Assembly (NCBI GenBank): GCA_009103225.1
Contig: RHPI01001755.1
Location: 1-5,007, forward strand
Reading direction: 5' to 3'
Source of the DNA: Chlorokybus atmophyticus
Lineage: Eukaryota > Plantae > Mesostigma and Chlorokybus algae
DNA length: 5,007 nt
Shown here: one piece after another, positions 1 through 5,007 of the stretch
Layout of the letters: every line of letters begins with the position of its first letter
How positions within the stretch are numbered: position 1 is the first letter of the stretch
Program-made: the position numbers and the translations under genes
The notes under the pieces: generated by a model
What the model was told of the DNA's origin: nothing
Seen by the model: only the letters and a program-made list of their open reading frames with translations
Database searches by the model: none

Positions 1-90
1 GGCGCTCATTGCTTGCTATGGTACACCCCAGGCCCGGTGGGGAGTTTCATTGTGTATTCACTTCTGTAGCGGGCGCCTCCCACATCCTCG

Positions 91-277
91 CCCAAGCACG
101 GTGTCAAGCTCTCCCTGCGTGTAGCGGCAAGCGCGTCATGGTGATGGAATGGGGAGACGCCACGGCCTCCCGCTTGTGGGTGTCTTTCCTTGGCATGCGT
201 CCGGAGGTTCTTCCCTTCGCTCGTGCTGCGTTGAGCTCCTTCGGTGTTCTGGGCGCTGCCCTCCCAAGCACGGTGTC
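91..277 (+). repeat. Exact 15-bp dispersed direct repeat cccaagcacggtgtc (91-105 and 263-277)
   Basis: Direct reading; the copies are 172 bp apart and lie in different codon phases. Confidence 0.85.
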
Positions 278-413
278 GGGAGTCAGCCCACCCTTTGAAA
301 CATCGTCCACCAGATATCGCTTCACCTTGTTTCCTGGCAAGGAACTCCCCCGCACCCTCTCCATACGAGTGCAGCAAGCGGGTGCATGGTTGACATATGC
401 GGTGGATGTCACT
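174..413 (+). other. RRM-like region of ORF1
   Basis: LWVSFLGMRPEVLPFARAALSSFGVL...TRYRFTLFPGKELPRTLSI matches the V.v.gvP......aL..fG.v...R.v......lP..l.i pattern that precedes the knuckle in L1/Tx1 ORF1. Judged by eye. Confidence 0.55.
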
Positions 414-434
414 TCCTTCTCCACCCCTCCTGTC

Positions 435-476
435 TGCCACGTGTGCTCCCGCCCAGGTCATACCCGCTTTCGTTGT
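435..476 (+). other. CCHC zinc knuckle (CX2CX4HX4C)
   Basis: CHVCSRPGHTRFRC in frame 3 has the exact spacing. Confidence 0.92.
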
Positions 477-2319
477 CCTCAGCGCCAGGGATTCCTCTGC
501 TCCCGCTGGAGATGCCTCCACCCGTGCACCCCCAGCGCAGAGAGGCGCCACACATCTCCCCACGCAGCGTCCTCCTCTCCAGCAGACGCAGCGAGCCCCC
601 ACCGCCACCGGTGATCCCCCCTCTGCTCCCTCTTCTTCACGCACCCCGGTGGAGGGGAGTGAAGACTCCGCCTCGATACCAGCCTTCAACGCTGCTGCAG
701 ATGGCGCTCAGCACGCCCTTCCTTCGGTAGGAGCAGCGCCTTCAACCTTGCAGGCCCTCGCCACCCTCTCTCGCCTGGACGACCAGCGCGCTATCGAACA
801 GTCAGCATGGCAGCAGGCGTCGAGGCGGAAGGGTGGGAAGCTGCAGGCGGCTACGAGCGTGAAGCCCATGGCCTCTACTCTTTCTCAGCCCTCGCTCGTG
901 CGATGGCTGATTCCCCCTACCGCTCGCAGGTCCACAGCATGGTGGGACATGGTGGAGGAGGAGGAACACGAGCACACGGACGTGACGGCGATGACAGACA
1001 CCCCCCCCCGTTACTCCTCGTGCTTCCACCCTTCTTCCCCCGGCAATTGGCTGGGTAAAACACGCCCTGCAAGAGGTGGGGGTGGATGTTGGCCTCGGCC
1101 CTATTGACACAGTTTTTGTTGTTCCGCTGCTGGGGAGCGGCCTGCTGGACTCAGACTCCCCGAGTGTTCTGCTATCCGACGCTGGGCAAGTTTCTGGCAT
1201 GCACGTCGCAAAACTCTCCCTCCCTGTCAACCAGCCCACATCACCAGCGTCCTGGCTGCGTGCCCAGGTGCGGGAGGTGCTGGGTGTGGTCGGCTATCCA
1301 CTCGACACGTCCACGGACGCGATGGACGTTGACTACGCCATGGGCAACATGCTTGCAGTCAGGGGCACAGGAAACAAACGCAAGGGGAAGTTGTACCTGG
1401 CTCCGGTGCTTTCAATGGCAACTCCCGACTTATCTCTTTCCTCTGCATTCATTCAGAGGTGGACCCCCCTGCATGAATGGGAGGCGTACTTGCTAGAAAG
1501 AGCAGCAGGGAGGGCTGCAACGCTGGGCCTTTCTCTTCATCAATCACTCACCGACTGGGGGGCTCAGCATTCAGCTCCGCGCTCAGCACCTCCTGCGGTT
1601 ACCTCACCCTCGATGGTTGGTCCTTTGGGCCCCTCTCCTCAGCCATCAGTGGTGAAACGCCTCTTTCCTGCCCTCTCTCCATCAGCTCCGCTGACGGCGC
1701 CACAATCTGCACTTTCTCCTCCAAGCCCCGCGCCAGCCATGGAGGTCCGCTTCGCTTCTCCACAGAAGACTTTTCCCACCCCGGAGCTGGTGTCCTTGCT
1801 TGTTGCACTGCGCTGCCAGGACGGGGAATGGTGGTTGGGGCTAGGACGCTGCAGCTCTCCTTCGCCCTTTCCCTTCGCCCTTGCCATGGCATCAACGGAG
1901 GGAGTAGAGCCGGAGCACCGTCTTCGCCAGCTTGCTGCTGATGCTATGCATCTGCCCGAAGCCACGGAATGGAGGGAGTGGGAGGCAGCTACCAGCTCCT
2001 TGTCTCTGCATCTGCAGGAGCACGCCGTCGGCGTTGGAAGAGTATGGGTGGTCTCGCCCCCACACCAGATCACAGTTACAGGCTCGGGCACGGTTTTGTG
2101 GGCTAATCTTCGCAAGCTTTTTCTGGTGGCGGGTGGCCTGGAGCCGCTAACAGCTCAAGCCTTGCAACAACAGCGTAAGCATGCGCAGCAGTTGTTGCCA
2201 CTGCCGCAAGGCGCGGACGACTCCCTTGTGGACGCTCTGCGCTGGGCTTCGACTGAGCCAGCAACGGTGCAGCTGCAAGAGCTGCTGGGTCTTTCGGCCT
2301 TTGAGTCGCTGCCGCCTTC

Positions 2320-2323
2320 ATGA
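2320..2323 (+). promoter_or_regulatory. ATGA start/stop overlap between ORF1 and ORF2 (candidate translational coupling site)
   Basis: ORF2 ATG is at 2320-2322 and ORF1 TGA at 2321-2323. The first endonuclease motif (WNVRG) begins at codon 10. Confidence 0.7.
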
Positions 2324-3079
2324 ATTCACCCTTACACGTCCGGCCTTGGAATGTGCGGGGGCTCGGAGGTTCAGCCTCTCACCTAGGTTTAAGCAAACGT
2401 TCGCTGCTGCTGCAACGCCTCCGTTCCTGGGGACTAGCAAGCTCTCTTTTTCTCCTATTGCAAGAAACTAAGCTCGGCCCCACTTCTGAAGCTGCATGGC
2501 TTCAGCGCTTCTGGCGGGGAGGTTCCTGCTGGTCTCCAGCTGCTGGCAGCCGAGGCGGGGTGGCCATTTTATTTCCTTCATGTCTTTCGCACCTGGTGAT
2601 CTCACAAGGTGTGTGTGTGCCTGCGCGCTGCTGTTGGGTGAAGCTGCGGTGGGATGGAGGCGTCCTGCTTCTGGCCTCGGTCTACGCACCCAACGAGGCA
2701 GCTGAACGCACTGCTTTTTTTGCAACTATATCATCCTCTCTCCCGGAAGCGGACTACTACATTCTGGGGGGGGGACTGGAATGTCACGGACAACCCCATC
2801 CTGGATCGCTCTCACGGGGGGGAGGACTTAAGCCCGTCTTCTCTCTCCTCATCCTCACTGCAAATGCTGCTCTCTGAGCGTGGCCTGGAAGACAACTTTC
2901 GTATTTTACACCCTCTCTCCATGGACTTCACATGGAGCAATCGCCGACAAGGTGCCGATCATAGAGCTGCACGCTTGGATCGTCTTTATGTGAGCACTGC
3001 CCTGCGGGAACTCACAGAGTCTTCAGAGGTGTGCTTAGGGGAAACACTTTCTGACCATGTCCCCGTCACCGTTACTCTT
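2320..3079 (+). other. APE-type (EEP family) endonuclease domain
   Basis: WNVRG, LQETK, SRGGVAIL, SVYAPN, GGDWN, FTW, RLDRLY and SDHVPV are all present in order, with catalytic N, E, Y, D, N, D and H intact. Confidence 0.95.
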
Positions 3080-4217
3080 TGCCCTACTGCAGCTGTTGAG
3101 CGTGGGCCCGGATGCTGGAAGTTAGACCCTACGCTGATGGCCGACACCCTCTTCCGCACTGACGTAGAAGACCTTTGGTCTACCAGATCTCAGCGCCGCC
3201 CCCAGCCGCACTTGATGGTAGAATGGTTCGAGGAAGGGCTCGAACAGGTGGCTGTCCTGGCCAGGCAGCACTGCACGCGCAGACGTGCTCTCCGCCATCA
3301 GTCAGACCAAGCTGTTCGAGCCCTGCTGGTGTCGGCTGAACGCTCCTTGTCCAGCTCCCCTACCAACGCCGCTCTGCAGGAGGAGTGCTCCTCGCTGCGT
3401 GGACAGCTTGCGAGGCTGGAGGAGGAGGCGGTGGAGGGTTCTTTCCTTCGCTTCAGCAGCGAATGAAGGCTGGAGGGTGAGAGAATGAGTAAATCTTTTT
3501 TTGCTAAAGGCAAGGCAGACAGGCAGCTCTTGCTCTTGCGTTCTCTCAGCTATTCCTTGCATCCGCATGATCCCCCCCTCACGGAGCAGGCAGAGATCTT
3601 GGAAGCAGCACGAGACTTCTACTGTTCTTTCTTTTCCTCCACACAGGTTGACCCTGTTGCTAAGGCTGATGCGTTGGCAACTTGTGTCGGCCATGTGCAA
3701 CCATCGGTGTCAGCAGAGGTTGCTCAAGGCTTGGACTTACCCATCACTATGGAAGAACTAGAAGCGGCCTTGATGTCCATGAACTCTCACAAAAGCCCGG
3801 GTATGGATGGGCTAACCGCCTATTTCTGGCAAGGCATGTGGCCCGTGCTCAAGGAGGACTACACTGCTTACTGCCAACAGGTGTTGTCTCGAGGGTATAT
3901 GGGCACGTCACAAGGAGTGGGTGTGATCACGATGTTGCACAAGAAGGTGACCTAGCCGATCTCCGCAACTGGCGTCCAATCACCCTACTCTCTCTTCACT
4001 ACAGGATACTAGCGAAGGCCATAGCCACTCGGCTTTCCCCTCTCCTTCCTGAGGTTCTCTCCGAGGAGCAAACAGGCTTTGTGAAACACCGCTACATATT
4101 AGACAACGTGCTCACAGCTCTGGATGCCATACACTACGTGAGTTCAACCAACCAGGATGTAGCCCTTCTTCTCTTAGACTTTATGAAGGCATTCGATAGG
4201 TTGGATTGGGATTTCTT

Positions 4218-4245
4218 GGAGCAGGTTATGCGGAGCAGGTTATGC
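4218..4245 (+). repeat. Perfect 14-bp tandem duplication (ggagcaggttatgc x2) causing an RT frameshift
   Basis: Units at 4218-4231 and 4232-4245, followed by gg. Removing one unit restores FLEQVMRLGFG. Confidence 0.95.
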
Positions 4246-4695
4246 GGCTTGGTTTTGGTGCAACGTTGTGTGGATGGATCAGAGTTCTCAATGGTGGGGG
4301 TCGCAGCCGAGTTTTGATCAATGGCCATCTATCCGAGGAGTTCTCCCTCCAACGCAGCGTGAGGCAAGGCTGCCCGATGGCCCCTGCCCTGTTTGTTCTT
4401 GCTACTGAAGCATTAGGTGCAATGCTGAAGTCCCATCCTGCCTGCAAAGGCTTGGCTCTTCCCTCATCTGGTGTTCTCCTTCCTGATGAAGACGCGTCAT
4501 TAAAAGATATCCGCTACTTTGCATTCGCAGACGATACTGCCGTGCTGCTGGAGGTATCGCCAGCAGCTTACGCGGCCTTCTTTTCTGTCATGCACTTGTA
4601 CTGTTTAGCCTCACACTCTGTCCTCAACCTCCCCAAGTCGGTTGGCATCCTACTCGGAGCAGCAGCACAGCGTCACCCTCCGGAGTGGGGGGTTA

Positions 4696-4721
4696 GGTGG
4701 CTTCACCGGGGGGAAGCCACC
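4696..4721. repeat. Perfect 9-bp inverted repeat with 8-nt loop (ggtggcttc accggggg gaagccacc)
   Basis: Arms at 4696-4704 and 4713-4721 are exact reverse complements. Confidence 0.85.
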
Positions 4722-4734
4722 ACGCTCTTAGGCG

Positions 4735-5007
4735 TACAAAGTTTGCCTCAACTGAATCACCCTACCAAAAAACTCATTTAAGTTATGATCCAGGACTCCG
4801 ACGCCAGCAGCAATTTGCTGACCGGCAACAACTGGTGAAACTTTTCTACCAGAAACTACATGGACAGCGCCTATGTTAAGATCCTTTTTAACGGCCACGA
4901 CCAATTCGCAGAACAGGGGGGTCTCACTGTAGCGCCATTCAACCCTACCAGCACCTGACGCCGCCTTCCCACGAAACGCATATACGTAGACTCGTTCGGT
5001 CTTTCGG
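4735..5007 (+). pseudogene. Fragment of a giant-virus (Nucleocytoviricota) major capsid protein gene, C-terminal jelly-roll, decayed; runs off the window end
   Basis: Stitched translation: YKVCLN/NHPTKKLI*VMIQDSDASSNLLTGNNW*NFSTRNYMDSAYVKILFNGHDQFAEQG/SHCSAIQPYQHLT/RLPTKRIYVDSFGLS. This follows the NCLDV MCP motif series (K.RLNFNHP.KELIWV, N.WFNFS, SAK...NGHDRF, YF..VQPYQHHT, P...IYVYSF.L) in order and with plausible spacing. Disablements: -1 near 4753, TAA 4779-4781, TGA 4836-4838, -1 at the G6 run 4916-4921, +1 near 4961. Confidence 0.88.

Follow-up and report, generated by a model that had tools for sequence, protein, structure and literature searches.

In the accessible part of their report, Maumus et al. 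(2014, PMC4083422) describe NCLDV-like relics in the moss Physcomitrella patens at 61 loci that are more than 92% alike. The relics are pseudogenes with internal stops and truncations, and rearrangements as well as retrotransposon insertions are found among them. In the same part of the report, no major capsid protein gene is present in these regions, and the dated insertions are those of LTR elements. A second group of related systems comprises chimeric retrocopies made by LINEs, of which the U6/L1 chimeras and the chimeras of Magnaporthe are examples in the available excerpts (PMC4476161, PMC2104539). According to the available excerpt of a catalogue of L1 chimeras (10.1101/2025.02.02.635956), the other RNA is located 5' of the LINE and the 3' part of the LINE at the 3' side. 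Viral insertions in Symbiodiniaceae are, in the accessible portion of the respective paper, mostly RNA-virus capsids (PMC9651163).

The window analyzed here is the whole stretch of 5,007 nt from Chlorokybus atmophyticus. On its plus strand a LINE extends to position 4736 and is followed from 4737 by part of the major capsid protein (MCP) of an NCLDV, read in the same frame as the reverse transcriptase (RT) of the LINE. This junction of LINE and capsid sequence had been noticed in a sequence-only reading of the window and was confirmed by our analysis. The locus is a real but fairly ordinary scar within a virus-derived repeat. It belongs to a kind that is already known, in which a decaying relic of a giant virus is interspersed with a host retrotransposon, and adds a new example to it. 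Its one modestly interesting feature is the amplification of a dead capsid fragment to about a dozen copies.

Judged by its sequence, the plus-strand element up to 4736 is a decayed L1-like non-LTR retrotransposon with a putative apurinic-type endonuclease (APE) and a RT. The 5' ORF of the LINE (3..611, plus strand) is an open frame with a weak CCHC zinc knuckle at about 432–482, for which the zf-CCHC score (E 0.056, 14 bits) was below the cut-off and is to be taken as a hint only. An open frame of 442 aa (995..2320, plus strand) is located between the knuckle ORF and the endonuclease and is presumed to belong to the LINE as well. It had neither a Pfam family nor a usable match in the ESM Atlas and may be a lineage-specific ORF1 region of the LINE. 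Within positions 1000–1012, a contig of one sequencing run (X3, see below) has one extra C in the C-run after 1000 when compared to the window. Either one of the two carries an error in homopolymer length, or the site is polymorphic; by our own count the extra C would not join the neighbouring open frames.

The putative endonuclease region of ORF2 (2305..3463, plus strand) is divided into two frames (2305–2874 and 2642–3463) and is followed by an in-frame TGA (3464–3466). Here, the family Exo_endo_phos (PF03372) was matched by two collinear pieces spanning profile positions 3–128 (E 2.1e-4, 21.5 bits) and 120–225 (E 0.011, 16 bits), respectively. Both scores are below the cut-off of 24.5 bits; the order and the position of the pieces fit an APE located N-terminal to the RT. 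The RT region of ORF2 (3467..4736, plus strand) consists of three frames and ends at motif 7 (..TTLLGV), as indicated by RVT_1, by PDB matches and by alignments with RT relatives. An RVT_1-type RT domain (PF00078), as it is characteristic for non-LTR retrotransposons, was found with 57.6 bits on the frame 3670–4314 and with 29.2 bits, just under the cut-off of 29.6, on 4200–4778. Among solved structures, human LINE-1 ORF2p gave the best matches with both RT pieces (E 1e-6 to 9e-6), and R2 proteins were also among the best PDB matches.

At least four lesions disable ORF2. These are the frame change within the endonuclease, the TGA at 3464–3466, a stop together with a frameshift near 3953 and a 14-bp duplication. 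The latter is a perfect tandem duplication (GGAGCAGGTTATGC twice; 4218..4245, plus strand), which shifts the RT frame.

The nearest protein relatives of the LINE were 36–38% identical over most of the query. A search among longer proteins gave five matches, with identities of no more than 38% along most of the query, plus one with 57% over 58 residues; among proteins of similar length there was a single match (38%). Sibling contigs of the LINE with a likeness of at least 80% were represented among the listed run contigs by only one piece of 80 nt with 13 differences. By sequence comparison, the LINE thus appears nearly alone, without close siblings. Rfam gave no match in the window at the gathering score, and a cluster look-up of the nearest capsid and RT relatives returned no names.

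The last RT frame reads ..FADD.., ..LNLPKS.. and ..TTLLGV, which we take, by their patterns, to be the RT motifs 5, 6 and 7, respectively. In the alignment with the RT relative P0002 (566 aa) the homology runs to TTLLGVQ of the window, corresponding to IRILGVD at residue 402, and hence ends at 4736–4739. The earlier placement of the end of the LINE homology at LLGV (4736) is in agreement with this. The alignments with P0003 and P0005 stop at motif 6, KS(V). Beyond motif 7, P0002 has 164 more residues and P0005 has about 340 more after KYLGI. Since these relatives are longer past motif 7, the LINE of the window is missing its thumb and C-terminal region as well as any 3' UTR. Thumb, 3' UTR and poly(A) had already been reported missing by the sequence-only reading, and we likewise found none of them in 4737–5007, where the longest A run read from the sequence has six letters. 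An APE-type LINE would end in a 3' UTR followed by poly(A) or another tail, and no such end is present in the window. The 5' side of the LINE is long. It takes up the window from the first base onwards, and a contig of X3 runs 594 nt further upstream at single-copy depth.

Downstream of the LINE, the region 4737..5007 (plus strand) is a 5'-truncated repeat copy that carries a dead fragment of the C-terminal jelly roll of an NCLDV MCP and runs off the window. This identification is based on Pfam, PDB, HMMER and alignment. The capsid reading contains three in-frame stops at 4779–4781 (TAA), 4836–4838 (TGA) and 4956–4958 (TGA) on the plus strand, as determined by frame reading. The 93-residue translation of 4728–5006, with the three stops read as X, served as the query. 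In Pfam it matched Capsid_NCLDV (PF04451) at profile positions 39–127 of 196 with E 0.009 and 16.2 bits, which is below the cut-off of 34.8. Among solved structures the PBCV-1 proteins MCPv3 (8h2i; E 2.4e-4) and MCPv1 (E 4.1e-4) were matched. HMMER found 15 proteins at E ≤ 1e-3 among 1.84 billion. The best of these, P0007 (413 aa; E 3.8e-9, 42% identity), aligned query residues 7–92 with about residues 269–355. Eight of the 15 matches were checked in Pfam; PF04451 was present in all eight and the N-terminal PF16903 in six. In an alignment of nine sequences 10 columns were invariant, the NHP and NG motifs being among them.

In the C-terminal jelly roll the fragment is significantly similar to bona fide MCPs, and it represents the middle of this jelly roll. 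A complete open MCP gene with the N-terminal jelly roll (PF16903) is not found here, as the approximately 268 N-terminal residues are replaced by LINE sequence in the window. The MCP frame reads gta caa agt ttg cct caa ctg aat cac cct and is identical to the RT frame. The sequence-only reading had let the capsid homology start at tac aaa gtt (4735). Its boundary was right within 2 nt; its codon parse was one base off.

No longer capsid relatives came up in a word-based protein search. In viral contigs the capsid piece gave 11 pattern matches, none of which was confirmed, and an exact 31-base pattern from the piece had no match in each of the metagenome, genome and viral contig sets. An alternative genetic code for the stops was considered and rejected, because in the alignment of nine sequences the three stops align to W/F/M, F/L and H of the relatives. 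The minus strand of 4728–5006 contains a stop-free frame of 92 codons opposite to the dead capsid reading, which runs off the end of the window. A coding role of this antisense frame was rejected as well; it had no Pfam match, and an open frame opposite to a former gene is not unusual.

In total, contigs of four sequencing runs from two studies, here named X1 to X4, were aligned to the window. X1 and X2 originate from the same sample, and X4 had no contigs aligned to the window. Contigs over 4755–5005 had a depth of 94–99 in X1 and X3, compared to 5–9 for the LINE. The capsid repeat is thus present about 12–16 times, contig word depth being a rough measure of copy number. In X2 the repeat had a depth of 6.4 and the LINE was not assembled. 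That the depth ratio is the same in two studies speaks for copy number in a single genome and against a mixture.

The window copy differs from the family in 9 of 251 letters (3.6%). All seven differences within 4772–5005 are located at 4812, 4830, 4874, 4877, 4886, 4887 and 4925; two more are located within 4755–4771. At six of the seven listed positions a T or A of the window stands opposite a C or G of the family, which fits C-to-T decay of this copy. None of the differences falls into a stop codon, and all three stops are common to the high-depth copies. Since the stops are shared by the family, the death of the capsid gene preceded the origin of the copies. The same argument excludes that the capsid piece of the window was retrocopied from a working viral mRNA.

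The family contigs reach 447–467 nt upstream of 4755 and 602–648 nt downstream of 5005, and contig ends recur at about these distances. The sequence shared by the family amounts to at least 1.37 kb, and the window copy lacks at least 449 nt that the sister copies have. Beyond 5005, 30 letters of the family continue the capsid reading, as read by eye in the capsid frame. Upstream of 4737 the family carries a different, non-LINE sequence. The depth of the family at the position of the joint was 99.5 upstream versus 94 downstream in X3, and in X1 one contig with a depth of 98.6 covered both sides. As the depth does not fall towards the 5' side, the family does not look spread by 5'-truncating retroposition. 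The source of the capsid piece is a resident, dead and amplified viral relic. As a variant to be considered, the family may form a tandem array with the window copy as a diverged, truncated edge unit; such a position would account for its truncation as well as for its divergence of 3.6%.

The capsid sequence is not the normal 3' region of the LINE, a case which the sequence-only reading had named as refuting, since the sister copies of the capsid piece continue upstream with non-LINE sequence and at a depth quite different from that of the LINE.

The joint is located on the plus strand between 4736, the last base of the LINE, and 4737, the first base of the capsid-repeat family, as derived from the end of the RT homology, a comparison of loose ends and the X3 contig. 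When the 30 loose letters of the high-depth sister copies before 4755 were compared to the window by eye, 18 of 19 letters were identical from 4737 to 4755 versus 3 of 11 upstream of 4737. This places the breakpoint between 4736 and 4737, where the sister copies are without LINE sequence. No filler letters were found at the joint. On the capsid side, which is the side that can be checked, there is no microhomology because the last LINE base differs from the family base before 4737.

The GC content was 62.5% at 4621–4740 and 49.8% at 4741–5007, which corresponds to the fall from approximately 62% to approximately 50% counted previously by hand. The contrast is softer than these figures suggest. 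The RT part (3670–4736) had 53.5% overall, 200-nt windows at 4001–4300 had 49%, and 1.8% of the 271-nt windows of the LINE were as low in GC as the capsid piece. The observed/expected ratio of CpG was 0.65 in the LINE (1–4736; TpG+CpA 1.26) and 1.02 in the capsid piece (4737–5007), the latter a small sample of 271 nt. This may reflect a different residence time or a different methylation history of the two parts, as far as the small capsid sample is representative.

The joint itself was bridged by X3 only. Here, a contig of 1033 nt with a depth of 9.19 spans 3769–4801 with 0 differences and thereby includes 65 nt on the capsid side, while the neighbouring LINE contigs have depths of 7.2–8.3. 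The bridging contig has the window copy's own letters where the high-depth family differs, namely at 4744 and at two positions within 4755–4771. Additionally, the family contig of X3 is split exactly where the bridging path merges (4772–4801). X3 is possibly the source of the assembly itself, so that its support is independent of the assembler and not of the sample. X1, which belongs to the other study, contained the LINE with 0 differences to 4575 as well as the high-depth repeat, and none of its listed contigs spans 4576–4754. A short piece of low depth in X1 starts at 4686 and is preceded by 24 unlike letters; we give it no weight. As a single-copy contig of X3 is identical to the window across the joint, misassembly, one of the origins proposed by the sequence-only reading, is disfavoured.

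How the joint was formed can be answered only tentatively. Our preferred explanation, with a probability of about 0.4, is that a single DNA deletion or end-joining event made the joint and removed the 3' end of the LINE together with the beginning of the repeat copy. Both partners would once have been adjacent, or the LINE would have resided inside virus-derived DNA, and one deletion, not a RT event, would then have fused the two. Such a deletion needs two earlier events, i.e. the arrival of the LINE and the arrival of the repeat copy side by side. We rank it first because both partners are cut at arbitrary internal points, because the joint is clean, without filler and at single-copy depth, and because the repeat family shows no 5'-truncation gradient. 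It is also favoured by the shared stops, according to which the capsid gene was already dead before the window copy arose, and by the decay of both parts, visible in the lesions of the LINE and in the T/A differences of the capsid copy. Furthermore, there is a precedent in the rearranged NCLDV relics with retrotransposon insertions described in the accessible part of the moss report (PMC4083422). Of the origins proposed earlier, the insertion of the LINE into viral DNA followed by a later deletion is, tentatively, the best fit. The deletion is followed in our ranking by a nested insertion, a break-primed insertion of the LINE, a template switch and, at last, a misassembly.

In case of a nested insertion, a 5'-truncated copy of a mobile, capsid-bearing repeat would have landed in an older LINE, which would be interrupted and have its 3' part beyond the window. 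This is the simplest of the alternatives with a single event, since both apparent truncations would result from it. Retroposed copies are often 5'-truncated, which is a consequence of target-primed reverse transcription, and the repeat copy of the window is truncated in the same way. It also belongs to a family of about 12–16 nearly identical copies, and the contrast between the CpG-poor LINE (0.65) and the capsid piece (1.02, a small sample of 271 nt) would fit a later arrival of the latter. However, the depth of the family is equal on both sides of the joint position, without a gradient of 5'-truncation, and terminal features of any transposon class were not seen. Moreover, a divergence of 3.6% (9/251) from the family majority is not that of a fresh insertion. 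We therefore consider a nested insertion unlikely, even though it is the strongest single competitor of the deletion.

It is equally unlikely that the RT of the LINE itself made the joint, be it by a jump from the RNA of the dead capsid repeat or by priming at a broken end of the repeat. If it did, the locus would provide an actual example of how retrotransposon machinery works on endogenous DNA of giant viruses. The host retrotransposon machinery would then be reshuffling, and perhaps spreading, giant-virus relics in the genome.

Of these two routes, priming at a break is the less improbable one, but it falls behind the nested insertion. Here, the broken end of a capsid repeat would have primed the RT internally on the LINE RNA in an endonuclease-independent manner, and the LINE would have been born without its 3' end. 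Endonuclease-independent insertions of L1 are described as 3'-truncated, without poly(A) or target-site duplications and accompanied by deletions of the target. The 3'-truncation of the LINE without poly(A), its long 5' side including the 594 nt beyond the window in X3, and the direct joint to the target without filler all agree with this. No sibling LINE was found against which microhomology could be checked, however, and no family-like stretch interrupts the 594 nt upstream in X3, where the 5' end of the LINE was not located either, so that the remaining half of the broken repeat does not lie nearby.

A template switch is more doubtful still. The retrocopy of a giant-virus capsid mRNA that had been proposed earlier is disfavoured, because the three stops are common to the approximately 12–16x family, and because the order of the partners is reversed compared to the known chimeras, at least to those in the accessible part of the catalogue (10.1101/2025.02.02.635956). 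In an amended form, the RT would have been primed on the transcript of a resident, dead capsid repeat, would have jumped to the LINE RNA at motif 7 and would have copied it to the 5' end. Both parts being on the same strand, the clean joint and the long 5' side of the LINE part could be explained in this way, and chimeric retrocopies made by LINE RTs are known, as the available excerpts report (PMC2104539, PMC4476161, 10.1101/2025.02.02.635956). The amendment does not change the unusual partner order relative to the catalogued chimeras, and it requires the capsid repeat to be transcribed. The stops common to the genomic family argue against a working viral mRNA as the template. In addition, the LINE has no sibling contigs of at least 80% likeness except for the piece of 80 nt and no close protein, and thus shows no sign of recent activity of its family.

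Finally, assemblers do err at the edges of high-copy repeats, and the joint is located at such an edge, is bridged by X3 alone, possibly the assembly's own source, and is followed by window letters at 4812–4925 that are absent from the listed contigs, a weak point as contigs drop rare variants; but a false joining of two unrelated loci at the repeat boundary is very improbable, given that the X3 contig crosses from 4736 to 4737 without a single difference, reaches 65 nt into the capsid side, carries there three letters unlike the high-depth family (4744 and two in 4755–4771), has the depth of the single-copy flank and coincides with the split of the family contig exactly at the merge (4772–4801).

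Irrespective of the event that made the joint, the locus shows that a fragment of a giant-virus capsid gene has turned into a repeat of about 12–16 copies after its death. It also shows that giant-virus relics are broken up alongside host retrotransposons. A warning can be drawn from this, as a capsid match beside a RT is not evidence of a live virus or of a fresh retrocopy.

Compared to the known systems, the LINE resembles human LINE-1 ORF2p (PDB 8sxt, 8c8j, 8uw3 and others), its best structure match, in the layout of a putative APE followed by the RT. The relationship to human LINE-1 ORF2p is distant, and the element of the window is frameshifted and without anything after RT motif 7. The capsid fragment can be aligned, within a single frame, with the C-terminal jelly roll of small (about 400–440 aa) double-jelly-roll MCPs of NCLDV such as PBCV-1 (8h2i). 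In contrast to MCPs of the PBCV-1 type, it has three in-frame stops, and no N-terminal jelly roll is present in the window. Nothing found among 1.84 billion proteins is more than 42% identical to the fragment.

With the chimeras made by LINEs, as far as the accessible excerpts describe them (PMC4476161, PMC2104539, 10.1101/2025.02.02.635956), the locus has in common that two unrelated sequences are joined head to tail on one strand and that a LINE is one of the partners. It differs from the usual order given in the available part of the catalogue (10.1101/2025.02.02.635956), since the LINE is the 5' partner here and is cut internally.

The locus also resembles the relics of Physcomitrella as they appear in the accessible part of that report (PMC4083422). 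Both have many similar copies of virus-derived DNA with stops and truncations, rearrangement and a retrotransposon as the neighbour. Measured against the same part of the report (PMC4083422), the locus described here is distinct in that a capsid fragment is involved, with at least 1.37 kb of shared sequence and about 12–16x depth, and in that this fragment adjoins a non-LTR LINE truncated on the 3' side. It is one more example for the known picture of decaying giant-virus insertions.
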